Positions 14,240-47,133 are shown, numbered from the stretch's first letter. The stretch: DNA of 64,000 nt from an uncultured Actinomycetota bacterium (GCA_963758515.1 CAVWVO010000004.1:1513-65512), one strand, 5' to 3'. Notes: a model not told the origin generated them from the letters alone. Program-made: numbers and translations.

Positions 14240-14610
14240 GCGGCACAGACACGGCGACGCTGGAGCTACGTCAACGTGTTGGGTATCAAAGTTGGGTATC
14301 AACAGCCGCCTACTCACGCCAATGCGAGGCAGCGTGACAGACAGAAGCCCCAGTTCAAGCGGTTGTCGGCCGCCTGAAGCAACCCCCAGACAACCTGGAG
14401 AGGCTTTGCAAGCCGGGGGTCGCCGGTTCGAGCCCGGTCAGCTCCACTAAAGCCCCTGGTCAGAGGCCACTTATTGTTGGCTGTATAGTGACAAATACGG
14501 TGTTGGGATCAATCTGGGTGTCAACCAGGCGAGTTAGGCGCCGCACGGTGCAGCGCACGAAGCGGGAGCGACTGCCCCTGAACGGCACTTCGGGGCACCT
14601 CTGGGGCGCG
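14240..14610 (+). mobile_element. attP-like module A: paired 11-mers, conserved block, tRNA-Ala(UGC)-like 3' 45 nt, second 11-mer pair, integrase N-terminal remnant
   Basis: TTGGGTATCAA at 14279 and 14292. Core GGCTTTGCAAGCCGGGGGTCGCCGGTTCGAGCCCGGTCAGCTCCA at 14402-14446. TTGGGATCAA and TGGGTGTCAA at 14503 and 14515. Remnant ..RRRTVQRTKRE.. from about 14535. Confidence 0.6.
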
Positions 14611-15536
14611 CGGTGACCACCGCGTTATCGGCCACCGATCCAAGCGCAACGTCGAGAAGTTGCTCTGAGGTTTGAACGTCGCCGCTAAATTCCCGCCCGA
14701 ATCAGCCGCCGGTCATGGCTGCCTCTTCGGCGGTCTCGGAGCGGCTTTGGCTAATGACGAACCGACACTGCTCTCGCCAGGCACCTCACCCGCTCGGCGC
14801 CGGGGTCGACTGCTAGCCGCGCGCGCACGGAGGGCGTAGAGCGCTGATGCGGACCGTCGGGGCGGAACCCGAAAGTGAATCACCAGAAGGACCATCCCTA
14901 CTTTCGCCCTACTCTGTATGGCGGGCAGGCTGATCGCTCGGCCCTGCCCGGCGTGGGTGCTGTCACGAACACCCAGGTTTGATTCCGGCGCAGGCACCGC
15001 CGGAACAAGGGTGATTCCAAGGACTCAGCTTTGGGAAGGGTCGTCAGGCGTACGACGGAGTACCAGCGCTAACCATTATGTTATCTGCACGCCGTCGAAC
15101 GGTCATGAACGGCAGCGTCCGCGGGATATTCGCGGGATGCGACTTCCGCCGCTGTATAACGGCTTCAGGGCCTTCTCGTCGCAGTTTCGTCCGAGCCACG
15201 TCTGCAGGCCGAAGTGCCAGCTACGACACTTGGTTTGACGTCCAAGCTAACGCCCGCCGCGACCGATGCGACTGGCCGGAGGAGTACGTCCGGGGGAGCC
15301 GTCTAGCTGAGTCGCGCTCGGGATGGACGACCTCGGTCGATTTGTACAACGCCAGCCCTCGCGAGCGGCGCGGCAGCGCATCCTGCTGTGGCTCTATCGG
15401 CGAGCCGCTTCAGCTGGGCTTCGAGGGTGCTGATTTTACTCGACGAGAGTCGGTCGGAGCAGGAAAACCACTTTCAATGAGCGGCCTCGTGGCGTCGTGA
15501 CAGGATCGAGACCTCATGCCGTTGCTCTGGTCGGCT

Positions 15537-18005
15537 CTATACGTAGCCTCGCTTCTGCAAGACTTGCCAGGATATCCATCCTGGAACGATCGGCAGCCAG
15601 TAGGTGGACAGCCTGTAAACGAGTACAGCCGCGACGGCAGGCCCGGCGTGCATACCAACGCCGGTCAAGCCGGCGACCAAGGCCGCCTCGATCGCGCCGA
15701 GACCGCCCGGGGTAGGTGAGGCGGCAGCAATGGCAGCGGCACCCAGGTAGACCGCTCCGATCTCTTCGATCCCGACCCCGCCGCCGAATGCCTGGATCGA
15801 GGCCGCGAGGCCTGCGATGTACGCAAGAGTCACCAACGCAGAGCCGCCCACCAAAAGCGCCAGCTTGACAGGGCTGGCTGCGACAGTTCGCAGGCTGTCG
15901 GCACCCGATCTCAGGGCCGGCAGCACCCGGGTTGCTCCGAAGCTCCTACCCCGACTCGTGGCGAGCAACATTCCGACCAGTGCGGCTGCAACAGCGAGAA
16001 TGAGCAGCAGCTTGCTGGCTGCCGGCAGCTTGAAGGCGTGCGTCAGCCCACGGCTCGCCAATGTGAAGAAGATCACCATGAGGATCAAGTGAGCCACAAG
16101 TCCCACGAGCGCATTGACACCAACCGCGGCGATACCGGCACCGGGTGGGACACCCCTCTTTTGCAGGAATCGTGCGTTCAGCGCCATTCCGCCGATGTTG
16201 GCGGGCGAGACCCGGTTGACGAACGAGGATGCGGTCTGCGTCAGGGTCATGGGCCAGAACGGTATGGGTCCCGGCACGGCACCAATCAGCGCCACCGAAC
16301 TCGCAAGGTACGTCAAGGCGGATGCGGCGAGGATGACCGGCACCCAAATCCAGTGCGCCGACTGCAATGCCTGCCAGCTGCTTCCTACGTGGGCCAGCTG
16401 CGGCAGGATGAAATAGAAGGCACCGGCAGCGGCGGCGATTGCGAGCAGGTTCTTGAGCCGGACCCGCTGAAGCCGGGCCAACGGCTGATCACCGAGTCCA
16501 CCGGCCGCGGTGGCGGCTGCCCTGGTTTCCGCGAGCAGGCCATCGTTCCTCCCGATCGCCTGACGCGTGGCTGCCGACAGAGCCAGCGGCTGCAGCAACG
16601 GAACTGCGAGCGCCAGAGCTTCGGCGCCGACTACCGCCGCAGCGCTGGACACAGCTCTTTCCGCGCCGACCATCGTGGCCAACGACGCCAGTAGCTCGGC
16701 TATGTCAAGGTCCTTCTGTCGCCGGCTGGCGACCAGTTCCGAAAAACTGAAGTCGGTCAACCAAGGCACAAGGTCGCCGTCGACCATCACATTGGCCGCC
16801 CGCAGGGAGCGATGAGCGATCCCGGCGCGGTGCAGGCTGTCCACTTCGGTCCACAGCTGTCGGAGAAGGTCATCGCTGATCGCCTGCGAGGACAATTCGG
16901 CGAGCGAGGTGCCATCTATCCGCTCCATTACAAGCAGCGCCGTCCCCTCGCGGGCTTTGATAATCCGTTCGACATTGGGGACACGGACGCCGGCTCGCTC
17001 GGCTGACATGCCAACGAGGGCCTGGTGCTCGACCGCGCGAATCACCGCGGCGGAAGGCCATGTGTTGTCGACGTTGCGCAGCCGGACGAACCGATATGCC
17101 CGGTAGAGCAGGTCCGCATCACGTTGGTCCGAGCCGAGAGCCTTTATGAACAACCGGCGCCCGTCAGCGGCGACGGCCACGAACGGCCGGGAGCCTTTCG
17201 TATGAATATCGGCCGACTCGACGATGACGGTTGGAAGACCCGCGGACCGAAGCGCCTCCGCGATCCCGACCGGACCGATCCGAAGGTCAGGCACGCCGAA
17301 TGCCACCAGAACACCGGCGCCCACGCTCACCCCGACTGCGAGCGCGAGAAGCAGTTCGGCCGGCAGCACAGTGCCGGTAATGAGCCGGATCCCTACCATC
17401 GTGCTCACCGTTAGCCATGCCGTCCGGCGCCACGGACGGCACAGCCATGGCGCGAGGGCGACAGTGATCGCCGCCGCCGCGGCAAGCAGCGGCGGGTCTG
17501 GAAACCAGGCGCCGATCAGCCACGAGCCGTGTCCTGTGGTCAAGGCCAATGCGTGCGGGTGCTTATCGCCGAACAGATACAAGATTCCTGACAGCGCCGC
17601 ACCGGCTGCAACAGCGCCGGCCGTCAGGCCGGCCAGGAGACGGAACCGGCGGTGGAGGAGGACGCCGGCGACGATCCCCGCGGCAGCGACGACGAATGCA
17701 ACTTGCACAAGACCAATCAACAGCCTTCCAGTCGAATCAGATCCGAGCCAGGACACGGTGCGCGCGCCGTTCCTGACGAGCTGACCGGGGGCCACCGCGA
17801 TTGCCGCGAGTGTGCCGATTAGAACCAGTCCGCTTACGATGAGCCGGATGACATCGCCCGGATGCCGGTAACGGGACGACGGGACAAGCTGAAACGCCTG
17901 GGTTCTGACTAGATCTGCCGTGTCGGGCCCCGAGTCATCGGTCATCGTGAGCTCGCCTTCAGGAGGGATCTTCGCGTCACGCTGGGTCTGGTCCGTGCTG
18001 GTCAT
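15537..18005 (-). CDS. Polytopic membrane protein with a central kinase-like domain (catalytic Asp position is Ser) and a C-terminal MprF-type flippase-like (LPG_synthase_TM/UPF0104) domain
   Basis: Intact 822-aa ORF. The start ATG at 18005 overlaps the PAP2 stop (ATGA). Kinase-like loop GIAHRSLRAANVMV and LTDFSF. C-terminal SPTPGGLGAIEAALVAGL motif typical of the flippase-like TM region. Confidence 0.8.
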   Translation of the reverse strand: MTSTDQTQRDAKIPPEGELTMTDDSGPDTADLVRTQAFQLVPSSRYRHPGDVIRLIVSGLVLIGTLAAIAVAPGQLVRNGARTVSWLGSDSTGRLLIGLVQVAFVVAAAGIVAGVLLHRRFRLLAGLTAGAVAAGAALSGILYLFGDKHPHALALTTGHGSWLIGAWFPDPPLLAAAAAITVALAPWLCRPWRRTAWLTVSTMVGIRLITGTVLPAELLLALAVGVSVGAGVLVAFGVPDLRIGPVGIAEALRSAGLPTVIVESADIHTKGSRPFVAVAADGRRLFIKALGSDQRDADLLYRAYRFVRLRNVDNTWPSAAVIRAVEHQALVGMSAERAGVRVPNVERIIKAREGTALLVMERIDGTSLAELSSQAISDDLLRQLWTEVDSLHRAGIAHRSLRAANVMVDGDLVPWLTDFSFSELVASRRQKDLDIAELLASLATMVGAERAVSSAAAVVGAEALALAVPLLQPLALSAATRQAIGRNDGLLAETRAAATAAGGLGDQPLARLQRVRLKNLLAIAAAAGAFYFILPQLAHVGSSWQALQSAHWIWVPVILAASALTYLASSVALIGAVPGPIPFWPMTLTQTASSFVNRVSPANIGGMALNARFLQKRGVPPGAGIAAVGVNALVGLVAHLILMVIFFTLASRGLTHAFKLPAASKLLLILAVAAALVGMLLATSRGRSFGATRVLPALRSGADSLRTVAASPVKLALLVGGSALVTLAYIAGLAASIQAFGGGVGIEEIGAVYLGAAAIAAASPTPGGLGAIEAALVAGLTGVGMHAGPAVAAVLVYRLSTYWLPIVPGWISWQVLQKRGYV

Positions 18006-18769
18006 CTTCGGGCCCCCGTAACTCGATTGGGAAGGACGCGCAGGCTCGGGCCGCGACGGGCCAGGTGTCTCCTGTCGTTCCATCGCCGCTGAAGCAGTTC
18101 GGTTACAAGGGCGGTCACCAAGGCGCAGGACGTGCCGAGGAGAATCCCGGCAGTGGCGTCAGAGAGCCAGTGGGCAGCTAGGTAGGCTCTGGAGAGCCCC
18201 ATCAAGATCGCGAACGTCACCGCGACCGCGCCCCAAAGAGCGCGCCGCCTACCCGCGGGCACCAAGGCGATGACAGCCGCGACGACAGTTACCGAGGCGG
18301 CGACGGCGTGTCCCGACGGGAACGACCCACCGCTCGTCGCAACGAGGGAACCGAACGGTCTCGGCCGGTCATAGACGTCTTTCAGCGAGCCGATGAGGAG
18401 CTCCGACGTCACCACCGCCGCGGTGAAGGCGGCCAGGTGCCACCACCGGCGCTTCAGGGCCAGGAAGCCGGCCATCGCTATCCGCACGGGCAGGGTGACG
18501 TAAACAAGCCCGAGAACGTTGAAGACCTTTGCGATTCCCGTCAGCGGCGCTGTCCGGCCGGAGACCATAAGGCGCAGCCACCAATTGTCGATGTGCTGAA
18601 TCCTGGCCAGCGTGCCATGGACAGCGACCAGGACGAACAGCATGGCCGTGAGCGTGACTACCACGGCGGTAACGAGAGCGGCTCGCCGCGGGCTGGCGAG
18701 GAGCGCTTCCTCCTTCCACGGGGTCGTGGCCGGCCCGCTTAGCCCGGACATGAGGCGCCTCGTCCGCAC
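18002..18769 (-). CDS. PAP2-family phosphatase (membrane)
   Basis: KDVYDRPRP, SFPSGHAV and SRAYLAAHWLSD are the three canonical PAP2 motifs. Start is the GTG at 18769 or the ATG at 18751. Confidence 0.85.
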   Translation of the reverse strand: MRTRRLMSGLSGPATTPWKEEALLASPRRAALVTAVVVTLTAMLFVLVAVHGTLARIQHIDNWWLRLMVSGRTAPLTGIAKVFNVLGLVYVTLPVRIAMAGFLALKRRWWHLAAFTAAVVTSELLIGSLKDVYDRPRPFGSLVATSGGSFPSGHAVAASVTVVAAVIALVPAGRRRALWGAVAVTFAILMGLSRAYLAAHWLSDATAGILLGTSCALVTALVTELLQRRWNDRRHLARRGPSLRVLPNRVTGARR

Positions 18770-20952: not shown

Positions 20953-21252
20953 GTCGATCTCCCTGGAGTGTTCAATGGATTGAGGGGGGTTGGTCATCGG
21001 ATCGGGCACTTAAGGACGCGAGGCCATGCGACGCATCGGTGGAGTGGTGACTACATCCAGGGCCACCTTCTGCTTGGGGACACCCTGAGCCGGGAGCAGA
21101 CGATTGGCGAGGTGTTGGACGTTCTCGTGGGCACCAAGCGTCGCCTGCGGTCACGCCGCCAATGAAGTCCGACGCACCCGGACGGGCAGCTCGACCCATC
21201 ACGCGCCCGTGTCGGGGAATCCTCCCAAGATTCCCCGACACGGCGCGGGCGA

Positions 21253-23316: not shown

Positions 23317-23442
23317 GACGAGCACGTCCTTCGGTCCTGCGGAAAACCGGGTGAATCCCGCTACACGAACCGTAAAGACCGGGCCCGGCGGAGTCGTCGG
23401 CCGCGAGTGCGATTGGCGCTCGTCCTGCGGGCGGATTCGAGA

Positions 23443-23459
23443 CTCGTCCTCGAGTAGGA
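23443..23459 (-). promoter_or_regulatory. 17-bp box TCCTACTCGAGGACGAG (minus-strand reading) upstream of the hydrolase-kinase operon
   Basis: 13 of 17 positions are identical to the box upstream of the kinase/regulator operon (25414-25430) in the same orientation. It lies about 125 nt upstream of the hydrolase start. Confidence 0.4.
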
Positions 23460-23518
23460 GGTTCGAAGCGCGGGATCGACGGAACGGCGGCAGTCGCGCT
23501 TGGGGTCCCCTGTGAGGC

Positions 23519-25380: not shown

Positions 25381-25413
25381 TCGCTAAAGGTACGCCGCCC
25401 CCTCCGTTCCCGC

Positions 25414-25430
25414 CTCCTACCTGAGTAGGA
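25414..25430 (-). promoter_or_regulatory. Palindromic box CTCCTACCTGAGTAGGA (TCCTAC-N4-GTAGGA) upstream of the kinase/regulator operon
   Basis: Perfect 6-bp arms, 35-50 nt upstream of the kinase start codon. Related box at 23443-23459. Confidence 0.45.
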
Positions 25431-25632
25431 ATCGAAGTCGTCGGATGGTAGGAGCCGCGGTTGACTACTTTGCAGGTTGGGGCCGCTACGAGCGCCGAGG
25501 GGTCGGCCAGCAAGGCCCGAGAAACGGATACGAGCCGGGTCGCATCCGCACGGCCGTAGGGGCGGTCGAACCTCAAAGTCCAGGTCCGCTGGGCGCGGAA
25601 CCCGGGGCGCGATGCAACACCCGTGATCTGTC

Positions 25633-26730: not shown

Positions 26731-26863
26731 GTACAAGGACCAACGACGGGCAAACCGATCGTCTATGCCCTCACCATCCCGGCCAATGCTCCGAACCCGG
26801 CCCTCCCCCGCAGCTTCGTCGCCTTCGTGCTCAGTTCGAAGGGGCAGGCGATCATGTCCTCGA
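26731..26863 (+). repeat. Displaced duplicate of the 3' part of the binding-protein gene (copy of 11185-11326)
   Basis: ACGACGGGCAAACCGATCGTCTATGCCCTCACCATCCC...GGGCAGGCGATCATGTCCTCGA is shared with only a few mismatches, plus a 9-nt gap near the 5' end. Both copies encode VQGP..TTGKPIVYALTIP.NAPNPAL.RSFVAFVLSSKGQAIMSS. Confidence 0.85.
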
Positions 26864-26865: not shown

Positions 26866-27501
26866 TCGAACGGGATAGGCGCCATCGCCGTGATCGAGCG
26901 GCCTGCGAGAAAGGCCTGCTCCGCCCCCGTCTCATCACCCATCACCGCGGCCAGGTTGCCGCGGCATCGGGCCAAAGCGAGCACTCCGTGGATTCCGGCC
27001 GAGAGGATGCCGGCGGTCAGTCGGTCATCAGGAGCACTGCCATGCGACCGGATGACAATCCGGAAGCTGGCCGACGAGGTCCTCGAAATTGTCCTCCTCT
27101 CCAGACGCCTGCCGGAGATCGCCGACGATGCGGAGGAGAAGCGGGTCGCAGCCGACACTGCCGAGATGTTCGCGAAGCAGGTCCGTCGCTCGCTCTACAT
27201 TGCCGGAGGCCGCGGTGCGGAGGACCTCGATGTGGTGGCGTTCCCAGGTCCTCTGCCCGCGATCGTGACGTTGGCCTGAGGTTCCGATCGTGGCGTCGAG
27301 GTCGCAGAGGGCAAGCTCGAACGCCGGGTCGGCTTCGATGGCGAGGCGCAGCGCTATGGTGGCTCGGCGGCGGTCAATGGCTCTCTGCGCCTGCCGGTAC
27401 AACGCCGCGGCCTGTGAGCTCGTGGTGACCGGGCGGCCATGGTCCTCAACGGCGTCCAAGTCATGATGCTGGCTGAAGGGCGGACCTTGTCCTGGCTGCA
27501 T
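26866..27501 (-). pseudogene. TPR-like helical protein (possibly TTC38-like), frameshifted and 3'-truncated
   Basis: ORF 27028-27501 continues in the frame of ORF 26763-27158 (..HGSAPDDRLTAGILSAGIHGVLALARCRGNLAAVMGDETGAE..) and runs into the duplicated fragment. Confidence 0.35.
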
Positions 27502-35243: not shown

Positions 35244-35302
35244 CGAGTCTTCGACCAGTTCTGGCAGCGAACCGAAGGACCGAAATCACCAAGGAGAGCA
35301 CC

Positions 35303-36642: not shown

Positions 36643-36789
36643 CGTGGATAAAGCCCGCTTGAACATCTCGGCCGCCAGACTAGGACTCAAGACCACTTGC
36701 AGGCCCGGCGTGGCACTGCTGACGATGTGCGATCAGCGGGACGATCCTCGCACGAGCGCATAGGTTCTCGCAATTTCTTGGGGCGCATC

Positions 36790-37090
36790 CGACGCCTCGG
36801 AAAGCGCCGGCTCGACCTCCCACAGGTCGACTTCGAGCTCACCGTCGACGAGGCGATAGCGCGTTCCATACCGCTCGACGAGGCACAGCCCGGGAGACGC
36901 CGGAAGCCTCCCGCAGCCGTGTACGGAGACTCGTCACCGTGTTCCAGAACCGCTGGCTGACCTTGCCGGATCCACCTCCGGCCAGAGCGCCTCGACCACG
37001 GTCTCCCGGAACGAGCAACTGACCTGCTCCGAGAACACCTTGCCAGTGCCGGCTGTGACCCTCTCGCCCTCCGCATCGTCGCTCATCTCC
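36790..37090 (-). pseudogene. Remnant of an OmpR/PhoB-type winged-helix DNA-binding domain
   Basis: Fragments ..WNTVTSLRTRLRE.. and ..LVERYGTRYRLV.. lie in two minus-strand frames. There is no receiver domain upstream. Confidence 0.3.
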
Positions 37091-37294
37091 TGGCGCCAAT
37101 GGGAAGGACCAACTGGTCATCGACCTCGCCGACCAGTTTCCGGCTTGTCATCCGGCCCACTGGCGCGGAGCGCCGGACCGCTCTCGGCACAGGCAAGTCA
37201 CGCTGGTCGCCTAACAGGCGCTTTAACGGCTTATGTTTTAGGGGCCATCGAGACGTGAGTTGCTGGTCACATCAGGCTCGGCCACTATGGCGTC

Positions 37295-38383
37295 GTGAAT
37301 GTCGGCGGGTGGGTCGACCCTCGATTCGCTGCGGTCCGCGACGAGTTCCAGGGCGTCCTAGAGGAGCAGCGTGGCACTGGTGCCGCCTATGCCGTCTGGT
37401 GCGACGGCCGCCGGGTAGTGGATCTCTGGGGCGGTCACGCTGATGTCAGTAGGCGGGCGCCATGGGTGTCTGACAGCCTGGTTCAGCCCTACTCGGTAAG
37501 CAAGCCATTCGTGGCGGTCTGCGCGCTGAAACTGGTGGAATCGGGCGGTCTCGACCTCGATGGACCGGTGCAAAAGTATTGGCCCGAGTTCGTAGCCCCG
37601 GCCACTGTGCGCCAGCTGTTGTCGCACCAAGCGGGTGTGGTGGCATTGGCCGCCCCGGCACCGACCGAGGCCTTCTACGACTGGGACTACCTGTGCCAAC
37701 TCCTGGCGGCACAAGAGCCGGCATGGGAACCGGGCACAGCGCATGGCGAGTCGGCATTGTTCTACGGACATCTCGTCGGCGAGCTGGTCCGACGGGTCGA
37801 TGGGCGCACTCTCGGCCGGTTCCTCCGCGAGGAGATATGCGGACCTCTCGGAATCGACTTCTCCTTCGGCCTCGACCCGGCACAGCAAGCCCGGACGGTT
37901 GAGCTGACTGGTCTCGACAGCTCGTTCCGGGCCGCCAACGCATCGGGACGGCCGCCGCTATACCTGCGGGCGGTCGGCAACCCCCCGGGCGCGCAGGACG
38001 GTGCCGTCGTCAACAGCCCTGCATGGCGCACCGCAGAGATCCCCGCCGTCAACGGGCATGGCACGGCGCGAGCCGTCGCCGGGTTCTACCACGCCCTGTC
38101 CACTGGCAAGATCCTGCGACCCGACACTCTGGCGGAGGCGACGCGCCCGCAGTGCTCGGGGACGGACCAGGTGTTCGGAGACGACAACGCTTGGGGGCTC
38201 GGATTCGGGATCGATGACGAGGGATTCGGGATGGGAGGCCTGGGTGGGAGCTACGGCGCGACAAGCACCCGCGGGGGCTATTCCCTCGGCTTCGTAACGG
38301 GCAGCGTCGGTACCCATCAGCGCGTCACGAGTCTTGAGAACAGCCTTCGGACTTGTCTCGCATTGGAGCCACTCGACGCCTGA
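37295..38383 (+). CDS. Beta-lactamase-related serine hydrolase (class C/esterase type)
   Basis: Intact 362-aa ORF with SxxK motif YSVSKPF and the expected length for the family. Confidence 0.85.
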   Translation: MNVGGWVDPRFAAVRDEFQGVLEEQRGTGAAYAVWCDGRRVVDLWGGHADVSRRAPWVSDSLVQPYSVSKPFVAVCALKLVESGGLDLDGPVQKYWPEFVAPATVRQLLSHQAGVVALAAPAPTEAFYDWDYLCQLLAAQEPAWEPGTAHGESALFYGHLVGELVRRVDGRTLGRFLREEICGPLGIDFSFGLDPAQQARTVELTGLDSSFRAANASGRPPLYLRAVGNPPGAQDGAVVNSPAWRTAEIPAVNGHGTARAVAGFYHALSTGKILRPDTLAEATRPQCSGTDQVFGDDNAWGLGFGIDDEGFGMGGLGGSYGATSTRGGYSLGFVTGSVGTHQRVTSLENSLRTCLALEPLDA

Positions 38384-38436
38384 GGAGGAACACCTCCATT
38401 GAGCCAGCCGTCCGCGGGGAGCAGGTCACGGGACCA

Positions 38437-38990
38437 CGATCGATTCAGCTCTGCAGCACTGAACGGGGACGCTGCAGCTGTGTCCTCAGCGCCCGTTGGG
38501 TATCAAAATTGGGTATCAACGTGTGCCTACCCACCCCGTTGCGATCCAACGCGCTAGACAAAAGGCCCAGTTCAAGCTGTTGTCGGCCGCCTGCAGCAAC
38601 CCTCCAGACAACCTGGAACGGCTTTGCAAGCCGGGGGTCGCCGGTTCGAGCCCGGTCAGCTCCGATCCAACGCGCTAGACAAAAGGCCCAGTTCAAGCTG
38701 TTGTCGGCCGCCTGCAGCAACCCTCCAGACAACCTGGAGACGGCTTTGCAAGCCGGGGGTCGCCGGTTCGAGCCCGGTCAGCTCCACAGCTAAATCTGAG
38801 TTCAGGCACCTAAGCGGTGTTGCATCGTGGCGTGGTCGCCTTTTTCGGCTGGTCCCTCGACGGAAAAGCGGCAGTACGTGCGCCGCACGGTGCACGGCAC
38901 GAAGCGGGAGCGACTGCAACTCCTTCAGCGCCGACGACCGCCAGGCGATACTCGACACCTTCGACGCCAACGACTTCCCCTTCAAGATCC
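38437..38990 (+). mobile_element. attP-like module B, with its core tandemly duplicated and an integrase N-terminal remnant
   Basis: TTGGGTATCAA at 38496 and 38509. tRNA-Ala-like cores end at 38663 and 38785. The downstream remnant ..FFGWSLDGK / RQYVRRTVHGTKRE.. is split over two frames. Confidence 0.6.
38543..38785 (+). repeat. Tandem duplication, 121 + 122 nt, each unit ending in the tRNA-like T arm and acceptor strand
   Basis: Units 38543-38663 and 38664-38785 are near-identical. One extra base in unit 2: CCTGGAACGGC versus CCTGGAGACGGC. Confidence 0.85.
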
Positions 38991-39016
38991 ATACCGGTGA
39001 CGGCTCAGATGGCGAT

Positions 39017-39056
39017 CAACCTTGGGGTTGACAACCGGACAACGGCGCCCTACCGT
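39017..39056 (+). promoter_or_regulatory. Candidate ArsR operator/promoter (CAACC-TTGG-GGTTG dyad overlapping TTGACA; TACCGT 17 nt downstream)
   Basis: Dyad at 39017-39030, TTGACA at 39028-39033, TACCGT at 39051-39056, gene start at 39087. Confidence 0.4.
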
Positions 39057-39086
39057 CCTATTCAACCAAAGAGTTGAGGAGGGTAG

Positions 39087-39443
39087 GTGGCGGTGCAGGC
39101 GATCGTGACCGTGTTCTCGGCATTGGCCGACGAGACCAGGCTTGACATCGTGACCCGCCTCGCCGCCGGCGACGCCACCTTGAGCGAGCTGGCCGAGCAC
39201 TACGACATGTCCATCCAGGCGGTGTCCAAGCACCTCTCGGTGCTCGAAGACGCCGGGGTCGTGTCCCGCCGGCGCGAGGCACAGCGTCGACCGGTCCGTT
39301 TGGAAGCGGAGGTGTTCGACCTCATGACCAAGTGGATCGAGCGATATCGCCAGAACGCCGAGGTCCGCTACCAGCGTCTCGACCAGTTGCTCGCCCGACT
39401 CGACGACCAGACCCCCGACAACGACGAAGGAGCCATGACATGA
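39087..39443 (+). CDS. ArsR/SmtB-family transcriptional regulator
   Basis: FSALADETRLDIVTRLAAGDATLSELAEHYDMSIQAVSKHLSVLEDAGVV. GAGGAGGG RBS upstream. Confidence 0.85.
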   Translation: MAVQAIVTVFSALADETRLDIVTRLAAGDATLSELAEHYDMSIQAVSKHLSVLEDAGVVSRRREAQRRPVRLEAEVFDLMTKWIERYRQNAEVRYQRLDQLLARLDDQTPDNDEGAMT

Positions 39444-39976
39444 CGACCACGACCAACCGAGAGGCCAAGATCACCATCGACGACAAGACGCCGTCGATCA
39501 CGATCGTCCGGGAGTTCGACGCCCCAGCGAAGGCGGTCTACCGGGCACACACCGAACCGGAGCTGTTCGTGCAATGGGTAGGCCCTGACAGCCTCGAGTC
39601 CAGCCGCGTCGACCGCTGGGACTGCCGCACTGGTGGCGAGTGGCGCTACGTCTCGACTCGAAACGACGAGGAGCACTGGTTCCGGGGTTGCTTTCACGAA
39701 GTCCGGCCTAACGAGCTCATCGTCCAGACGTTCACCTACGAGCCGGCGGCCGACAACGTGTCGCTCGGACGCTTTGTTTTCGAGGACCTGCCGGGCGGAC
39801 GCTGCCGGCTCATAGCGACCTCGCTGGTCGACAGCTTCGAGGCCCGCGACGCGTTCGTTGCCAGTGGCATGGACGTGGGCGTCCAGGAGGGCTACCGCAA
39901 GCTCGACGCGCTCCTCGCTCGGATGATGGCGGCAGCTGCGGTCGACGAGCCGAGGAACACATCATGCGAGAACTGA
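39440..39976 (+). CDS. SRPBCC / AHSA1-domain protein
   Basis: ATGA-type overlap with the ArsR gene. ITIVREFDAPAKAVYRAHTEPELFVQW pattern. Confidence 0.8.
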   Translation: MTTTTNREAKITIDDKTPSITIVREFDAPAKAVYRAHTEPELFVQWVGPDSLESSRVDRWDCRTGGEWRYVSTRNDEEHWFRGCFHEVRPNELIVQTFTYEPAADNVSLGRFVFEDLPGGRCRLIATSLVDSFEARDAFVASGMDVGVQEGYRKLDALLARMMAAAAVDEPRNTSCEN

Positions 39977-40569
39977 TCGTCGACTTCATCACGTCCCTAG
40001 ACGGGTACGCGACAGCAGAGGGCTGGCCGGGGTGGTGGGGCCTCGAAGGCCCCGAGTACCTCGGCTGGCTCGACGAGCGACCCAATGCCACGCTGCTCAT
40101 GGGTGCGAACACGTACCGGCTGATGTCGGGCTTTGCCGCCGGCGCCACCCCGGCGGGGACCGACGAGTTCTCCTCCGCTGAGGAGGCCTCGATCAGCGGT
40201 ATCACCGGAGCGTCGAAGGTGGTGTTCTCGTCCACCCTCGAAGAACCGCTTTCTTGGGCGAACACGACCCTCGTACGCGGCGACGCTGTCGAAGCGGTGC
40301 GGGCGATGAAGGCGGACGGGCCGGGCCTCCTGAGCACGATCGGCAGTCTCAGCCTGTGCCGGTCGCTGCTACGAGCCGGAATCGTCGACCGGTTCCGGGT
40401 CGTCATCTTCCCGGTCATCACCGGCGCCAGCGGCTCAGAACGCATCTACGACGGTTACCCCGACGTCGCGCTCGACATGATCACCAGCAGAACCTTCGAC
40501 GGGCGGAGCCAACTCGTGGAGTACCGTCCACGCGTCCTCGAACACTCACCGCTCGACGCCACAGCGTGA
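39964..40569 (+). CDS. Dihydrofolate-reductase-like (RibD C-terminal domain) family protein
   Basis: MRELIVDFITSLDGY...LLMGANTYRLM...STIGSLSLCRSLLRAGIVDRFRVVIFPVITG. Confidence 0.8.
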   Translation: MRELIVDFITSLDGYATAEGWPGWWGLEGPEYLGWLDERPNATLLMGANTYRLMSGFAAGATPAGTDEFSSAEEASISGITGASKVVFSSTLEEPLSWANTTLVRGDAVEAVRAMKADGPGLLSTIGSLSLCRSLLRAGIVDRFRVVIFPVITGASGSERIYDGYPDVALDMITSRTFDGRSQLVEYRPRVLEHSPLDATA

Positions 40570-40879
40570 TGGGCACGAGGTCGACGCTCGTCGTCCGGGG
40601 CCCGAACTTGCACGGAGTAGGCGCCCACCGCTCAACGTCGCTGTCGCAACAGATACGCAGAGAAGGCCGATCTACACTCGTCGGTTCAAATCGGGCATGA
40701 GACCGATGGCTCACCTCGCTGCCAACAACCAACCCCCAGCTCAGCGGACGGTTGTAGCTACGAGACAGCTACGGCCTTGATTTGCGCGTTAGCCCTCGTT
40801 TTGAAGACCGATCGATCTCGACCATCGCGTACGGGTACGGGTTTGGCGACCTCAGTGGCTTCAACCACTTCAAAGAGCG

Positions 40880-41150
40880 GCGGTGACCTGCTGACGGTTG
40901 GCCGTGGGTAACAAAGTTGGATATCAACGCAATCCGACTGCCGTCGACACGGTCCGCCCTGGACAGACAATGAGTCCAGCTCAGACCATCCAGGCCGACG
41001 AGGCCTGCCAGTTAGACAGCTCGAAGGGGCGGGCCGGGTGTCGCCGGTTCGAGTCCGGTCAGCTCCACTAAAGCACTGGTCAGAGGCCCTTTATTATTGT
41101 CTGTGGAGAGACAAATGTGGCGTGGGGTATCAAACCGGGCATCAACCGGC
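40880..41150 (+). mobile_element. attP-like module C (more diverged; only the T arm and acceptor part of the tRNA-like core is kept)
   Basis: GTGGGTAACAA and TTGGATATCAA at 40904 and 40917. GCCGGTTCGAGTCCGGTCAGCTCCA ends at 41067. TGGGGTATCAA and CGGGCATCAA at 41123 and 41136. The downstream flank aligns with module A (AAAGC.CTGGTCAGAGGCC..TTATT.TTG.CTGT). Confidence 0.55.
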
Positions 41151-41357
41151 CACGAATGACGCGCCGAACTGGGACGGGTCGAAGTCTTGCGAGAGTCGTA
41201 GGGCTGGCAACGAACTCCGTGCCGGATGCCCGCGCCGTAGTTGGCTACAGCGATCGCTGTCGCTCAACACTTGTTGCATCGCAGTGGTGCCCGGGTACAG
41301 CTACGCGCCTCGCGGCTGAGGGTTACGGCTGGGACGGCCCTCCTGCCATCCGCCACA

Positions 41358-41945
41358 TCATCGCGGCGAAAGAGTTCCCTCCCAGTTCTCGCTGGCGCCG
41401 ACCGACATCGTGTCGAACTGGATCGTTCCTGAACCGGAATCGCTTGCGAACTTCCCCGTTCCCGACAAAACCGTAAATGTCCTCCGCGTCGCGCTGATTA
41501 CGCCAAGACACAGGTATGGAGCCTTGACCCTCACAAGTAGGTCTCCTCGGTGAAACATAAGCCTCTCGACGAATGCGTGGGAAGCCCCGCAGCGCCAGTT
41601 GCCTTGCGGGTACTCCACATCCAGAACCGGCGCAACCGTCGCTGTACCCAACTGGGGAGAATGACCGGCTTCGACCAAGACGAAGCACTGAGCGGCCTTA
41701 GATGTTCGGGGCGGGCAGGCAACGCTGGCGGAGTTCCGCACCGAATCCTGCGTGGTGAGGGTGAAAAAACCCTTTGGACTGGGTGGCACCAGAGTCGTGT
41801 GAGGAGCAGCGGTCGTGTCCACGTGTGTCGAGGAGCTGGACGTTGCTGAGCCGCATGCGGTCGCAAGGATGGCCACGGTCACGGTAGTTATGGATGGGAA
41901 CGCCAACCTGCGGTGCGACGCCATTGACATCGAAGTCTGTCTCAT
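41358..41945 (-). CDS. Hypothetical lipoprotein
   Basis: Signal peptide with lipobox VAILATACGS. 195-aa ORF. Family not recognised. Confidence 0.55.
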   Translation of the reverse strand: MRQTSMSMASHRRLAFPSITTVTVAILATACGSATSSSSTHVDTTAAPHTTLVPPSPKGFFTLTTQDSVRNSASVACPPRTSKAAQCFVLVEAGHSPQLGTATVAPVLDVEYPQGNWRCGASHAFVERLMFHRGDLLVRVKAPYLCLGVISATRRTFTVLSGTGKFASDSGSGTIQFDTMSVGASENWEGTLSPR

Positions 41946-41989
41946 AGGCCAACAGCGAAGCGAGCGACCGCTTCATCTCACGAGGCTTC

Positions 41990-42190
41990 CCGTCCGCGCG
42001 GTGCCGAGCCGCCGACCCGGTCGCGCCTCCGGACAACGCCGAGTACCTGAAGTACGTCGACTTCATGCGGGCCAACGGGGTCCCGAACTACCCGACCCCG
42101 GCGCCGAAGGCAAGACGAACTTCAACGGCACCGGCGTCGACCCTAACAGCCCCTTCGTCGAGAAGGTCAACCAGGTGTGCGGCAAACAGA
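41990..42190 (+). pseudogene. Fragment of a small secreted Cys-containing protein (..MRANGVPNYPDPG..GVDPNSP..C motif family), frameshifted near 42094
   Basis: YLKYVDFMRANGVPNYP is in one frame and DPGAEGKTNFNGTGVDPNSPFVEKVNQVCGKQ is in another. No start or signal peptide. Confidence 0.3.
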
Positions 42191-42194
42191 TCGT

Positions 42195-42700
42195 GCGCGC
42201 CATCTTGGTAGATCAGCGGCACGGGTCCGGCGGGAGACATCACCGTGCCGGCTGGGCGGCGAGCAGCGTACTGAAGCCCTCACGCACCATTTCCTGGTCA
42301 TCGGCGATGAGGCAGGTGATGGTCACTGGTGCTCTTCCGCCGTCGTATCGCCACCGTCGTCCTCGAGCGATCGCTGCCCCGTTACGAGCGGCATACCTCG
42401 CAGCCGCAAGCACGCTGCTACGAGGAAGCCACCCTTATCGGTCGGTCCGGCGCTGAGAGAGCCACCAAGGAGCGCAACCCGCTCCTGCATGCCGACGAGC
42501 CCGAGGCCCGGCCCTCACCGTTGGAACCGAGCCCGGTGGCTGCCCCCGGCCGTTTCGCACCCCGAGTCTCAGCGAGTCGGCGTCCCGCTCAACCTTGACC
42601 AGGACGTCGGACCCGCCCGCGTGGCACCTGCATTGGACCGCGCTTCCTGGATGATTCGGTAGGCGCGTACCTCCACCGTGGCCGTTGACTGGGCTGCCGC
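42195..42700 (-). pseudogene. Wreck of a HisKA_3 histidine kinase C-terminus plus the first ~30 aa of a NarL-type response regulator
   Basis: Minus-strand reads: ..YRIIQEA.SNA.., ..GLGLVGMQERVALLGGSLSAGPTDKGGFLVAA.L.., then VTITCLIADDQEMVREGFSTLLAAQP followed by nonsense. Confidence 0.5.
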
Positions 42701-43149
42701 CTGGCAGCGTTCGCCGGCGGGATCGCCTTCAGGAACAGGGACCTGGTGGGAGGAGGTAGGCGAGGAGTGGCAACAACCGCCCTAGCTCGTGCTCGTATCC
42801 CGTGGCGAGCTCAGGACACCAGCCGAAGAAGCGTCAGCCGGCGGCCCCGGCAGCTCGCGCTGACGGTCCTTCGGGTTTGGTCAGGAGGCGATCGTCATCA
42901 ACCTCGACAACTAGTCGGGGCCTGCCCCGGTGAGAACACGTCGGCGACGGCATGCCGTAACATCAAAGCTCCAGCGGGCTGTGCGGCCGCCTGACTCGGA
43001 GCGTCCTTGCCGACCCTGAGGCCCTTTCCAGCCCGACCCCGCGACGATAGGCCGGCAGGAACAGCGAGGAGGCCCGTGACGGCATCGAAGATCGACTCAT
43101 CGACTGCCCCGTCACCGCTGACGCCCGCTCCGAGCCATCCGGTACCGGC

Positions 43150-44283
43150 ATGAGGTGGCGCCGCGAGCGGCCTGGTCGGCGGCCGAGCCGGGGGCCGGCC
43201 TTGCTTTGTGGGGTTGTGGTCGCCGCCTCCTTGCTGGCGGCCTGTTCTTCGGCCGATGGCAGTGCGAGCACGACAACCCCCACCCCGAAGAGCAGCGTGG
43301 CGGCACCATCATCGGCGACGTCAACACATGACACCGACCCACCCATCTCGAAGCCGGCGACTCCTGGTCGAGCCAAGCATCGGGCAGTACGTCGCCACCT
43401 CAAGTCCGATCCTGTTGCCACGGGCTCGAACGAGACCTCCTTACTCCCCCTCCCGGAGCCGAGGAGGTTGCGGCCGTTCTCGCCTGGCCTGCCCGGAGAA
43501 GGACTGTGGCGCCCGGTGGGTCGCCGGGTAGGAGGAGCGCCCGCCGTGTTCGAAACGTTCCTGCGGCCGCCTGGATCGGGCCTGGCGGCAGGGGTCGCCT
43601 GGATGGACCCGAGGCTGCTGCGGGCCCAGCTCTACTCGGGGAGCGGAAGCCCCGGAGCCGGCCCGTGGAAACTGACAGCGCCGATCGGCACCGCGGCGGC
43701 CCGTTCACTTGTCGCAGCATTCAACGGAGGGTTCAAGTTCCCGGCGGCAGAGGGGGGCTACTTCGCCGAAGGCCGCCTCGTCTACCCTCTGCGGGCTGGC
43801 GGAGCATCCCTCGTCATCTACCGGAACGGCGGTGCCACCGTCGGGGAGTGGGGGCGGGACGTCCAGATGACCCGCGATGTGATCGCCGTCCGTCAAAATC
43901 TCACGCTTCTCGTGGATCATGGCCAGGTGGTTCCGGGCCTCAATCCGTACGACATCTCTCAGTGGGGTTCAACCCTCGGCAGCATCCCGAACGTGTGGCG
44001 CTCAGGTCTGGGCATCAGGGCGGACGGCTCCCTCGTGTACGTGGCGGGCCCTTCGCTCGAGATCACGCAGCTCGCTGCCCTGCTCGCCCGAGCCGGCTGC
44101 GTCAGGGCGATGACGCTCGACATGAACCCGGACTGGACGGTGTTCGCCGCTTACAGCCCCGCCCCGGGGGGATTGGCCAAGCCTGCCAACGGCAGCGACC
44201 TGCTCGCCGGTATGGTCCAGCAGCCTTACACGTTCTTCGAGACGTGGTGGGGGCGGGACTTCATCACCATGTCAGCTCGTTGA
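43150..44283 (+). CDS. Phosphodiester glycosidase (NAGPA/DUF2233) family lipoprotein
   Basis: Lipobox LLAACSS, low-complexity linker, then VAAFNGGFKF...IRADGSLVYV..LDMNPDW. Confidence 0.8.
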   Translation: MRWRRERPGRRPSRGPALLCGVVVAASLLAACSSADGSASTTTPTPKSSVAAPSSATSTHDTDPPISKPATPGRAKHRAVRRHLKSDPVATGSNETSLLPLPEPRRLRPFSPGLPGEGLWRPVGRRVGGAPAVFETFLRPPGSGLAAGVAWMDPRLLRAQLYSGSGSPGAGPWKLTAPIGTAAARSLVAAFNGGFKFPAAEGGYFAEGRLVYPLRAGGASLVIYRNGGATVGEWGRDVQMTRDVIAVRQNLTLLVDHGQVVPGLNPYDISQWGSTLGSIPNVWRSGLGIRADGSLVYVAGPSLEITQLAALLARAGCVRAMTLDMNPDWTVFAAYSPAPGGLAKPANGSDLLAGMVQQPYTFFETWWGRDFITMSAR

Positions 44284-44903
44284 GCGAACGAGGAAGCCCC
44301 TCGCGTCGGCGACGCCCCGACGCGGCCGGCGGGATCGAGGCCAACGCGAGGCTGACGGCTTCGACAGGAGCCCTCCTTCTCGTCCTTCTCGCCGCCGAGG
44401 GCGCCACCATCCCGAGTGTCCGCCAGCTGATCACGCCGCACGTGTTCATAGGCATGATCCTCGTGCCCCCCGTGTTCCTGAAGATTGCTTCGACGAGTTA
44501 CCGCTTCGTCCGCTATTACAGGGGGGCCCCTCTGTATCGGCAGAAGGGGCCACCGCCGGCCCTGCTCCGGCTCCTCGGCCCGTTCGTCGTTGTGCTCACG
44601 CTCGTCGTCCTCGCCAGCGGCATCGCCTTGCTCCTGGCGGGCAGCCGATGGCGCCAGGACCTCCTCTTCGTGCACAAGGTGAGCTTCGTGCTCTGGTTCG
44701 CCGCAATGACCGTCCATGTTCTCGGGCACGTTCGGGACACTGCTCGGCTGGCGCCGCGGGACTGGTCCCGCCGGACGAGCTACGAGATCGGCGGCGTGGG
44801 ACTTCGCCAGTGGCTGCTCGTCGCAAGCGTCGTTGGCGGCGTCGTGGTGGGCCTCCTTGTCGTCTCGAAGGTGGGCAATTACATCGCGATCAGCAGTCCT
44901 TGA
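44280..44903 (+). CDS. Hypothetical membrane protein (4 TM-like spans)
   Basis: The open frame continues from the upstream stop. The TTG start at 44280 is tentative. Hydrophobic spans LLLVLLAAEG, FIGMILVPPVFL, PFVVVLTLVVLASGIALLL, SFVLWFAAMTVHVLG. Confidence 0.5.
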   Translation: MSERGSPSRRRRPDAAGGIEANARLTASTGALLLVLLAAEGATIPSVRQLITPHVFIGMILVPPVFLKIASTSYRFVRYYRGAPLYRQKGPPPALLRLLGPFVVVLTLVVLASGIALLLAGSRWRQDLLFVHKVSFVLWFAAMTVHVLGHVRDTARLAPRDWSRRTSYEIGGVGLRQWLLVASVVGGVVVGLLVVSKVGNYIAISSP

Positions 44904-45049
44904 GCCGGGTGCCGCCTCGCCGGCGATACCGGTTGTCAGTTCGGGCGAGGCCGCCGTCACCGGGTGCCGGGCGCTCTCTCGGGTACGCCGGGCACCGGTA
45001 ACGTCTCTGTGGGCTCGGCCTTCTCGACCCCACGTCCCTCGTCACCTAG

Positions 45050-45247
45050 TCCGGCTACGCCGCCATCTTCATCCTGTGCGTCCTGCAGTCCTGCTGCGAT
45101 CCACCGTCGTCCGAGTTGACGATGGGCGTGGCCGGAGCTCTCGCCGCCACCGGCAAGCTCAACCTCGCCGCCGTGATCGCCATCGGCACCGCGAGCGAGG
45201 TCGGCGCCTACATCGCCTGGTTCGTCGGCACTCGACGCTTTTTGTAA
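45050..45247 (+). pseudogene. DedA/SNARE-associated family fragment (~65 aa)
   Basis: GYAAIFILCVLQSCC.PPSSELTMGVAGALAATGKLNLAAVIAIGTASEVGAYIAWFVG, bounded by an in-frame TAG at 45047 and TAA at 45245. Confidence 0.5.
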
Positions 45248-45807
45248 GAGAAGCGGGCGCCGGGAAGGTGCCAGTAACCGATCAGGTTCTCGCACGCCCC
45301 CGGCCCGATCCACGCGGCGTGGGCGGGTGAGGCTTTCAGGCTGAGGAGAATGGCGCTCAGAGCCCGGCCTGAGCGCCTGATGATCTGTGAGGTGGGGCGG
45401 GAAACCCGATGAGGCGGTCCACGTAATCTGCCGCGCGGTCCGGCAAGGAGCCGGTCTTCATCCGCAGATAGGCGCACTCGGGAAAGAAGAGCGGCAGCGC
45501 CCGTCCCGTTGGGTCCGTGATGATCGCCTCCCACAACGGCCTCAGCCGGCTGGGGAGCGCCGGCCCGAGCGGAGGTTCCACGTGCGTCTGTGGGAGGCGC
45601 CCCGGCTCGGTCGTCGCCGTGGTAGCCGAGGGGAACAGCCGTCGGCGCTCCGCTCGTGGAAGTTGCCGGCAGGCTCGTGGTCGTCGCCGCCGGCAGGCTC
45701 GTTGGCGCTCGACTGACTTCGCCGGCGCTGAAGCCGCGCACGCTGAAGCCCCGCAAGCGGTGGCGACACAGGCGGCCGCCACCGAGCCAGCATGCGAGAT
45801 CGGAACC

Positions 45808-46280
45808 TCAGCCCGTCGCCGGATGGGTTGGGAAGGTACCGTGCGGACCGAGCAGGTCGAAGCCGTCGGGGGTGTTGAGAAGCCCCGGCGCTGTTCCGGG
45901 GACGCCGCTCTTACCGTATTGCCACACGAGGGCGCCGGTGGCAGGATCGACGGCCACCATGCGATGGTTGTAGTCGTCATTGGCCATGAGGACGCCCGAA
46001 GGTAGCTGCTCGACGAGGGAGGGATGGTTCAGCTCGCCCGGCCCGGACGTCGGCCCGTACCTGTAGAGAATCCGACCCTGGCGGTTGAACTCCACAAAGG
46101 CCGACCTGTATATTCGTTGCCGAAACTGGGAACTGCCTGTGTCTCAGCGGCACCGTCGCTGAAAGTCCGATGCCTGAAGCCGATATTCCCTGCCAGTCCC
46201 AGGTGGCACTGCACCCCTCCTCGACAGGCGTCACCGGCACGAGCCCGACAGATGGGGCGCCCGCTTGTCCAGGGATCAAC
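45808..46280 (-). pseudogene. Beta-propeller-type repeat protein fragment, frameshifted
   Basis: EFNRQGRILYRYGPTSGPGELNHPSLVEQLPSGVLMANDDYNHRMVAVDPATGALVWQYG. The upstream part is readable only in other frames. Confidence 0.3.
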
Positions 46281-46298
46281 CCCTGAAAGAGGTCAGAG

Positions 46299-46796
46299 AT
46301 GATCCGCTCGATCGTAGGGTTTCACGCTGACGCCGACGGGGACTGGGTGGCGGAGCTCTCCTGCTGGCACAACCAGCACGTTCGCCACCGGCCTCCTTTC
46401 CAGGAGCGGGCCTGGGTCGTGGACCCTGTGGGACGAGACGCCCACCTCCAGTCCTCCATTGAATGCCCCCTCTGTGACCGGGCAGAGCTGCCCGAGGGGC
46501 TGACCGTCCTCGAGCGCGCCGGCCCGTGGGACGAGCATTCCTTACCCGAGGCGCTCCGCCGCAGCCATCGAACACCGAAGCAGCGATGGGGCCGACTGCA
46601 GGTTCACTCCGGTGCAGTCGACTTTCAGTTTCTGCCGGACAATGCCCCAGGCGGTCCGCTCCTGCATCTCCTCGAGGGATCGCACCAGGCCATTCCCCCT
46701 CATCTCTCTCATCGGGTCCTCCTGATCGGGCCGACCCGTGTGGAGCTCGAGTTCTTGGGGCGGCGCAACGAGCAGGGACCAGGACTGGCCCGTTAG
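46299..46796 (+). CDS. DUF3565 / DUF1971-type (TehB-related) fusion protein
   Basis: IVGFHADADGDWVAELSCWHNQHVRHRPPFQERAWV...IECPLCDRAELPEGL, then WDEHSLPEALRRSHRT..WGRLQVHSGAVDF. Confidence 0.7.
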   Translation: MIRSIVGFHADADGDWVAELSCWHNQHVRHRPPFQERAWVVDPVGRDAHLQSSIECPLCDRAELPEGLTVLERAGPWDEHSLPEALRRSHRTPKQRWGRLQVHSGAVDFQFLPDNAPGGPLLHLLEGSHQAIPPHLSHRVLLIGPTRVELEFLGRRNEQGPGLAR

Positions 46797-46941
46797 GAAT
46801 CGTGCGGAGGTCTTTGCCCACCGACCTCGGCCGGCTGGGAGCAACTGCCCGCCCTTCCGTCGAGGCCCCGACGTCGGATTCCACAGTATTCGTGATGCTC
46901 GCCACTAGGGGGACAAAGTGGAGGCGGAGTTCTCCAGCCCT

Positions 46942-47133
46942 CGATCGATGTACCTCTACCGCACTGAAGCGGCGTCCCCCGTAGCTGGCGTTAGCCCGTT
47001 GGGTATCAAACTTGGCTATCAACACTCGCCTACCCACCGCCATCGCGCGCCAACGTGACAGACATAAGGCGCAGTTCAAGCGGTTGTTAGCCACCTGAAG
47101 CAAACCTTCCGACATCCTGGAGAGGCTTTGCAA
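46942..47133 (+). mobile_element. attP-like module D, truncated inside the anticodon-loop sequence
   Basis: TTGGGTATCAA and TTGGCTATCAA at 46999 and 47012, followed by the conserved block. Similarity ends after GGCTTTGCAA at 47133. Confidence 0.55.

Follow-up and report, generated by a model that had tools for sequence, protein, structure and literature searches.

The window analysed here comprises 64,000 nucleotides from an uncultured Actinomycetota bacterium (GCA_963758515.1, CAVWVO010000004.1:1513-65512). Between positions 14,240 and 47,133 it contains four modules, designated A to D, which are built around the 3' part of a tRNA-Ala(UGC) gene and accompanied by tandem 11-mers and, at two of the modules, by remnants of an integrase gene. 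The comparison with related loci makes it probable that the modules are attachment-site junctions between neighbouring islands of one tyrosine-integrase family that targets tRNA-Ala(UGC).

Four modules around a tRNA-Ala-derived core

The four modules were linked to each other by self-BLAST of the window. Module A is 83% identical over 212 bp to the part of B that surrounds its first core copy (B1), 94.6% over 111 bp to the second copy (B2), 84% over 136 bp to D and 80% over 138 bp to C, the last match spanning the T-arm, the acceptor strand and the right arm. A sequence-only reading of this DNA had described four modules in the same orientation, and these are indeed present far beyond chance. 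At up to three mismatches, the 45-nt core was found three times in the window (0 expected). The 11-mer was found eight times at up to one mismatch (0.12 expected), always on the plus strand and always within the four modules. Pairs of the 11-mer spaced 13 bp apart occur, as had been proposed, in all four modules and only there within the window. The features described in the following lie on the plus strand unless stated otherwise.

In module A, the left arm (P) carries two arm-type 11-mers (TTGGGTATCAA twice, in a 13-bp phase; 14279-14302) that precede the T-arm by 118 nt, like those of metagenomic left arms. It also contains the conserved box CAGTTCAAG (14351-14359), a variant of the family box CAGCTCAGG, which has a fixed position across left arms. 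The core (14402-14446) corresponds to the 3' 45 nt of tRNA-Ala(UGC), from the anticodon stem and loop to the discriminator base. The right arm (P'; 14456-14524), which is about 80% identical to that of C, includes the box CTGGTCAG (14456-14463), a hairpin-like stretch after the box and a degenerate 11-mer pair (TTGGGATCAA and CTGGGTGTCAA; 14503-14524) located 56 nt past the core. An integrase N-terminal remnant follows (VRRRTVQRTKRE; 14530-14575), which would stem from the island to the right of A and is 94.7% identical over 38 bp to its counterpart in B.

In module B, the 11-mer scan detected the left-arm pair at 38496-38519, and the second conserved box of the family, CAG(C/G/T)TCA(G/A), is located at 38568-38576. 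The core scan placed the copy B1, in which the discriminator base is changed from A to G, at 38620-38664. Because a partial left arm and the core have been duplicated in tandem (122 bp at 38664-38785, 99% identical to 38542-38663), B has a second core, B2 (38742-38786), which lies within the duplicate and matches that of A in 45/45 positions. The integrase N-terminal remnant of B (..VAWSPFSAGPSTEKRQYVRRTVHGTKRE; 38815-38928), again assigned to the island on the right, was detected by tblastn with the intact integrase of the metagenomic locus L119; two further intact family members, P0002 and P0006, also match.

The 11-mer scan also identified a degenerate left-arm pair in module C (GTGGGTAACAA and TTGGATATCAA; 40904-40927), which is accompanied by the second box (40977-40984) and a partial core (41033-41067). 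The anticodon loop of this core has been deleted or mutated, and only 35 nt are kept, comprising the 3' anticodon stem, the variable loop, the T-arm and the acceptor strand in a GGGTGTC..GAGTCC variant. The right arm of C (41076-41145) consists of the box CTGGTCAG (41076-41083), a hairpin and an 11-mer pair (41123-41133 and 41135-41145) 55 nt past the core, without an integrase remnant. Module D has a left-arm pair (46999-47022, from the same scan), the second box (47072-47080) and a core truncated to GGCTTTGCAA (47124-47133), which breaks exactly past the anticodon loop and continues into unrelated sequence. At this breakpoint, an OmdA/YdeI-family gene on the minus strand (47134-47373) lacks its 3' end. 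The gene is cut at profile position 49 of 60, with positions 1-49 kept, which indicates that either a deletion or an illegitimate recombination event took place at the loop. Thus, the earlier proposal of a shared 45-nt core is valid for A and B, but not for C, which has lost the loop, and D, of which only GGCTTTGCAA is left. The second 11-mer pair expected downstream in A and C and the integrase remnants expected in A and B were all recovered.

Counterparts of the modules at tRNA-Ala genes of relatives

A scan of metagenomes with a 27-mer covering the T-arm and the acceptor strand yielded at least 120 loci. One of these, L119, harbours a complete tRNA-Ala(UGC) gene whose last 45 nt are identical to the cores of A and B2 (45/45). 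At least 12 loci possess a complete tRNA-Ala(UGC) gene in the two-substitution variant found in C. Over its 35 nt, the core of C equals the tRNA-Ala(UGC) of L004, L051, L124, L126 and others, and ARAGORN annotated tRNA-Ala(tgc) genes of the C-type variant in L124-L127. The view that the core represents the 3' part of tRNA-Ala(UGC) is thus borne out by real genes in close relatives. The same scan uncovered copies outside tRNA genes that have a related left arm, namely in L003, L010, L062, L040/L077, L043, L052, L085 and L120. Viral contigs gave 0 matches with the core, the T-arm/acceptor pattern or the 11-mer pair, and hence no evidence for a phage origin.

The left arm has been kept in nine loci from metagenomes and metagenome-assembled genomes (MAGs). 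In an alignment of 12 left-arm sequences the spacing is constant and almost free of indels: the 11-mer pair is followed by an AGAC-AAAG-CCCAGCTCAGGCC box, by a GAC situated about 15 nt ahead of the loop, and by the core. The distance from the pair to the T-arm is 118 nt in A, 119 nt in B1 and 113 nt in C, where the 5-nt loop deletion accounts for the shorter distance. A census of 11-mer pairs over the 889,609 bases of fetched loci revealed 12 pairs, all on the strand of the core. Eight of the 12 precede the T-arm by 117-120 nt, three follow the core at a distance of 59-60 nt (L119, L124, L125) and one is located at +1283 near a contig end. The latter is read as the left arm of a mini island of 1.3 kb. 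The right-arm pairs of A and C (+56 and +55) match the +59/60 position at the intact sites. Arm-type direct repeats consequently flank the core on both sides at conserved spacing. The second box (CAGSTCAG, or CAG(C/G/T)TCA(G/A) when all variants are included) also has fixed positions on both arms (on right arms, 10-21 nt past the core), where an excisionase or a host factor may bind. It may be added that the box is similar in sequence to AGCTCAG in the D-arm of tRNA and to GGTCAGCTC in the acceptor strand.

Usually, the core of attP sites of the lambda or L5 type is flanked by direct-repeat arm sites, an integrase gene adjoins the site, and boxes between the arm sites and the core bind excisionase and bending proteins. 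The sites described here are alike in their arm sites flanking the core, in the adjoining integrase gene, which is intact in relatives and reduced to stubs in the window, and in the extra conserved boxes. However, the family has its own TTGGGTATCAA arm sites, strict spacing (-118 and +59) and CAGSTCAG boxes, and binding to them is predicted from sequence.

The genes that follow the tRNA in the relatives identify the integrase. In L119, the tRNA gene is followed by TTGGGTATCAAtaTTGGGTATCAA at +60 and, about 50 nt further on, by an open reading frame (ORF) starting with MSGSMVRRGERSWRLIAFAGWDPTTKKRQYVRRTVHGTKREA. The order of tRNA gene, TTGGGTATCA pair and integrase start is found in L119, L124/L125 and L126/L127. 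The proteins are tyrosine integrases of about 370 aa with the domains PF14659 and PF00589, and they belong to a family that is common in Acidimicrobiales MAGs and has hundreds of members with PF00589. In the intact relatives, integrases of 371-391 aa (PF00589) are encoded right after the tRNA and the 11-mers; P0002 and P0006 directly follow a tRNA-Ala(tgc) confirmed by ARAGORN, with the TTGGGTATCA pair ahead of the start codon. Near the intact integrases of L126/L127, there are also small HTH_17 genes, which are candidates for excisionases. In its sequence, the remnant in B agrees with the N-terminus (KRQYVRRTVHGTKRE) of the intact integrase of about 370 aa, and the B stub PSTEKRQYVRRTVHGTKRE is 72% identical over 25 aa to residues 23-47 of the L119 integrase (tblastn, E 4e-6). 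The window itself has retained only integrase stubs of 40-110 bp, at A and B, and tblastn with the L119 integrase and five family members detected no surviving integrase of the family there. Further remnants suspected at 45.5 and 47.8 kb were rejected, as the tblastn matches are weak (E 0.002-0.9) and none of them has catalytic motifs.

The occurrence of four same-strand copies within 33 kb that lacks an intact integrase would also be expected if the 11-mers and the conserved block were a dispersed, non-autonomous repeat without any link to integrases, similar to miniature inverted-repeat transposable elements or repetitive extragenic palindromic sequences. This explanation is very improbable. 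The 11-mers are confined to the modules within the window, every pair in the 890 kb of related loci lies on the same strand and at a fixed distance from the tRNA-Ala core, some pairs stand ahead of intact integrase genes, and terminal inverted repeats are absent. Indeed, all 12 pairs are located either between tRNA-Ala and an intact integrase, as in L119 and L124-L127, or at -118 nt on left arms, so that the 11-mer is tied to integrases, as had been assumed, and is not a dispersed repeat.

Another possibility is that the left arm and the core together form a structured RNA gene with a tRNA-like 3' end, comparable to a small tmRNA or a Y RNA. In such an RNA, a 5' strand (GGAGCTA or GCGGTTG) would pair with CAGCTCC and a tag-like frame (..QFKRLSAA*) would be present. 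The minimum-free-energy fold of A contains an acceptor-like complementarity, an in-frame LSAA-stop occurs in A and in a related MAG contig (L001), and weak, truncated tmRNA matches were obtained (about 10 bits, E 0.07-0.74). However, the tmRNA score derives from the T-arm and the acceptor strand alone. ARAGORN detected neither a tRNA nor a tmRNA in the window, and no Rfam family matched at the gathering thresholds. Covariance models did not detect a complete acceptor stem with cloverleaf, or a tRNA-like domain with a tag frame, over any of the modules. A 5' half of tRNA-Ala was not found in the window even at three mismatches, in agreement with the sequence-only reading, which had seen no convincing one. 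Moreover, the single-sequence fold of A is no better than that of shuffled sequences (z = +0.78), and the alignment fold of the left arms shows neither covariation (term +0.42) nor a helix apart from those of the tRNA part. Position 2 of the putative 5' acceptor strand is G, C or U without compensating changes, and the tag frame, which lacks a stop in B, is not kept in L003, L077, L043 and others. The structured-RNA explanation is thus effectively refuted. As neither a conserved structure nor a conserved reading frame was found in the left arm, its signals reside at the level of the DNA, which confirms that the repeat is not a protein motif.

Several observations concern integrases and arm sites beyond the tRNA-Ala family proper. 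A family member with 66% identity, P0004, has variant arms (a TTGTCGATCAA pair) and is located at tRNA-Arg(CCG) (L122, 9801-10001). The TTGTCGATCAA variant arm sites also occur beside the tRNA-Ala core in L003, L010 and L062; arm type and tRNA target thus vary semi-independently. At 2140-2720 on the minus strand of the window lies an N-terminal fragment (MTETSAGIWRLRVVVGYRPDGQPRQASRTVHGT..) of a different tyrosine integrase, which is about 25-32% identical to the tRNA-Ala family and is preceded by repeats of its own (GCGTCTAG(A) twice, and GCGTCTAGA / GTCTAGA). It looks like a remnant of another island in the opposite orientation. The integrase fragment reported earlier near 2140 (about 2140-2478), to which the stubs had been likened, is therefore present, but it lies on the minus strand and belongs to a different tyrosine integrase with different upstream repeats (GCGTCTAGA). 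Furthermore, positions 39010-39032 were considered as a third right-arm pair and rejected, because they form a TCAACC-TTGG-GGTTGA palindrome, conserved in L001, that mimics the 11-mer at one mismatch. The palindrome is located about 55 bp upstream of an ArsR-type gene (39087-39443) and is probably the operator of this regulator.

The segments between the modules

The DNA to the left of A is referred to as E0, and the modules delimit three further segments, which are likewise given on the plus strand. E1 extends over about 24 kb from the core of A to that of B (14447-38619) and contains cargo genes only: an LPG-synthase/kinase gene, genes for PAP2, hydrolases, a two-component system, BTAD regulators and an ABC transporter, and a beta-lactamase gene. 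E2 (about 2.3 kb, 38787-41032) carries the ArsR-type regulator gene as well as AHSA1-like and RibD_C genes, and E3 (about 6 kb from C to D, 41068-47123) consists mostly of ORFs without a family match, besides weak NAGPA-like and cytochrome b561-like matches. A sulfate ABC transporter and TauE are encoded to the left of A. The GC content of the window is about 65% without a compositional break, and the named homologues of its genes come from Acidimicrobiales MAGs. The set of integrase, replication and FtsK/SpoIIIE-type transfer functions that characterises actinomycete integrative and conjugative elements was sought with Pfam, and no such domain was found in about 50 ORFs of the window. Two repeats involve E1. 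A direct repeat of 128 bp (95% identity) links 11199-11326 to 26736-26863; the latter copy, inside E1, represents a C-terminal piece (SBP_bac_11 positions 183-222) of a gene for a sulfate-binding protein that is found intact to the left of A, and L001 has the copy at 11199-11326. Within E1, an inverted similarity of about 150 bp (75%) relates 27048-27195 to 37009-37155.

One of the segments is polymorphic. L001, a contig of an uncultured Actinomycetota MAG, is 96.8% identical to window positions 6678-14447. Beyond 14447, its sequence corresponds to the right flank of B (38787-38823) and then, from 39010 onward, matches the window at 97% identity. L001 thus lacks the 24.3 kb between the cores of A and B2 (14448-38786), and the integrase stub of B is missing as well. 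A bounded segment is therefore present in one genome and absent from the other, with the junction at the core; the event between A and B could be an insertion or a deletion. Between A and L001, about 6% of the left-arm positions differ, versus 0/67 positions of the core and the 11-mers.

Other loci show the same parts in different arrangements. In L003 and L010, the core connects a TTGGGTATCAA-type left arm with a right arm of the TTGTCGATCAA type, which is followed by the start of an integrase gene. These tandem junctions, together with the polymorphism of the interval between A and B, support the earlier proposal that the layout is that of an attP and results from repeated integration at one tRNA. 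L052 (6422-14885 in minus orientation) has tRNA-Ala, 8.4 kb of DNA and then a left arm with core, and thus a single anchored island. As a side note, this 8.4-kb island has no integrase and carries a TIR-domain-like protein, and L051 (4753-6197) has an integrase-less mini island of about 1.3 kb with the same arms at tRNA-Ala. The integrase-less islands in L051 and L052 suggest that loss of the integrase is common at the tRNA-Ala site.

Not all observations fit the idea that each segment was once a separate island, and the following ones weigh against it. The exact 43-nt core pattern matched only once in 185,579 representative genomes, in the orthologous module of L001, where there is no tRNA; real tRNA genes were found only in metagenomes, with the shorter T-arm/acceptor pattern. 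Neither a tRNA-Ala gene nor a left end of an E0 island was found in the 14 kb to the left of A, and within the window there is no intact target tRNA at an end of the array, so that an anchoring of the array is putative. The stubs of A and B retain the same 38 bp, which is odd if they decayed independently. No replication, transfer or excision gene was present among the scanned ORFs of E1-E3. The LPG-synthase/kinase gene of E1 is conserved at 70-80% across many Acidimicrobiales, and L129 has the LPG-synthase/kinase cluster without any att site; part of the cargo thus looks like lineage-typical chromosomal DNA. Finally, the informative sites of L001 are A-like up to a point 2-25 nt left of the loop and B-like from there on, and this switch fits integrase-mediated as well as homologous recombination.

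In an alternative scenario, the att sequences would be genuine, but the DNA between them would never have formed separate islands, a single attP-like junction having been copied or moved instead. Ordinary chromosomal segments would then have become att-bracketed by duplication, gene conversion, homologous or integrase-mediated rearrangement, or composite transfer. In addition to the att-free conservation of E1 genes, the mobility genes not found in E1-E3 and the L001 switch, this scenario is favoured by the uniform GC content along the window, by the 122-bp tandem duplication in B, which shows that local duplication occurs, and by the fragment of the E0 sulfate-binding gene copied into E1. However, the divergence among the left arms of A, B and D is 17-24% and is greater still for that of C, and the core of C is another natural variant, which fits separate, related donors better than recent local copying. 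Moreover, A and B have integrase stubs of their own, each where it is expected, and the right arms fall into two types, A/C and B. We thus consider copying of one junction unlikely and prefer junctions between separate islands. The idea that E1 exists as an intact island elsewhere was abandoned, since the LPG-synthase/kinase gene is widespread, the cluster in L129 is att-free and mobility is unsupported. In a more distant relative (L129-L132, 12476-22475), the LPG-synthase/kinase cluster, which is homologous to part of E1, precedes a defence-like block; no att site is present. The block is one which encodes an N6_N4 methyltransferase, DUF4411, Peptidase_M78, a UvrD-type helicase and NERD.

A proposed history of the array and its relation to known systems

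If the modules are junctions between neighbouring islands, the following course of events can be proposed. The integrase would recombine the attP of an island with the tRNA-Ala(UGC) gene, whereby the 45-nt copy carried by the island would rebuild the tRNA and the old 3' end would be displaced to the far junction. After integration, the right arm and the integrase gene would be located on the tRNA side, and the left arm and the displaced 3' fragment on the far side. A junction between two adjacent islands would thus consist of the right end of one island (left arm P), the shared core and the left end of the next one (P' and integrase). This order of left arm, core, right arm and integrase explains why each junction looks like an attP. 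Across the aligned left arms, the identity to the tRNA starts 0-4 nt before TTTGCAA, which would put the crossover either at the loop or on its right-hand side. By analogy, the crossover may take place in or next to the anticodon loop, matching the anticodon-centred class of Islander. The N-terminal arm-binding domain of the integrase probably binds the TTGGGTATCAA pairs, at -118 on the left arm and at about +56 to +60 on the right arm.

Each junction would owe its 3' half to the attP of the island on its right, and this would account for the different natural tRNA-Ala variant in C. Accretion, or the gain of a ready composite element, may have built the array E0|A|E1|B|E2|C|E3|D. Subsequently, the integrase genes would have been deleted to stubs of 40-110 bp, C would have lost its loop, and D would have been cut at the loop and fused to the truncated OmdA/YdeI gene. 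We infer this order of events, as well as a position of the tRNA gene to the left of the window.

Tandem arrays and an anticodon-centred attP class have been described by Islander, which lists 4 arrays with three or more members among 3919 islands (PMC4383910). As in these arrays, the island carries the tRNA 3' part from the anticodon loop onwards, a displaced fragment marks each end, the integrase lies on the tRNA side and several islands are stacked at one tRNA. In contrast, Islander counts an array member only if an intact tRNA and an integrase are present, while the window has neither and only two stubs; furthermore, the four junctions described here are at the rare end of array sizes.

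A review on integrative and mobilizable elements describes cis-mobilizable elements (CIMEs) and accretion, for instance in ICESt1/3 of Streptococcus thermophilus and the pathogenicity islands of Streptomyces (PMC5704250). The segments of the window would now be integrase-less, att-flanked islands of this kind. E1 lies between intact cores and arms in A and B, and no mobility genes were found among its scanned ORFs; E2 and E3 each have at least one damaged site (C and D). Both systems share tandem, integrase-less, att-flanked remnants and the succession of adjacent integration and decay (PMC5704250). However, the present case concerns Acidimicrobiales-like Actinomycetota, another integrase family, and tRNA-Ala instead of fda or tRNA-Lys. 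Moreover, judged from sequence, the segments are only putatively mobilizable, and a conjugative ancestor would be hypothetical. In Dehalococcoides, serial cargo islands at ssrA are reported to end each in a direct repeat of the 3' end of the small-RNA gene (PMC3146451). These islands resemble the array in being serial and in having 3'-end repeats of a small-RNA gene used for integration; they differ in that the target is tmRNA, whereas here it is tRNA-Ala, with the anchoring gene outside the window.

The invariance of the core and the 11-mers between A and L001, the recurrence of integrase-less islands and the polymorphic 24-kb segment hint at a further role. The att-flanked segments could form a working cassette store, whose junctions, with perfect 45-nt cores, perfect 11-mers and fixed spacing, would still be competent for recombination. 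One integrase encoded elsewhere, for instance at the real tRNA-Ala, would shuffle, excise or exchange the segments in trans, an idea that we regard as unlikely. Integrons differ from the array: the window has no intI, and its sites are tRNA-derived with arm repeats and are no attC hairpins. If true, the cassette store would amount to an integron-like swapping of multi-gene chromosomal segments in these Acidimicrobiales.

The recombination mechanism itself is textbook knowledge, and the array is a clear but ordinary case of stacked, decayed islands. The att architecture and the large integrase family of Acidimicrobiales-like soil and peat actinobacteria, however, appear to be undescribed so far. 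The analysis defines a concrete att architecture and a target, tRNA-Ala(UGC), for this integrase family. In addition, it illustrates how recombination sites came to bracket about 33 kb of accessory and regulatory genes, with one bracketed segment varying between genomes that are 97% identical. Moreover, the motif set can be used for mapping island boundaries in MAGs of this lineage.

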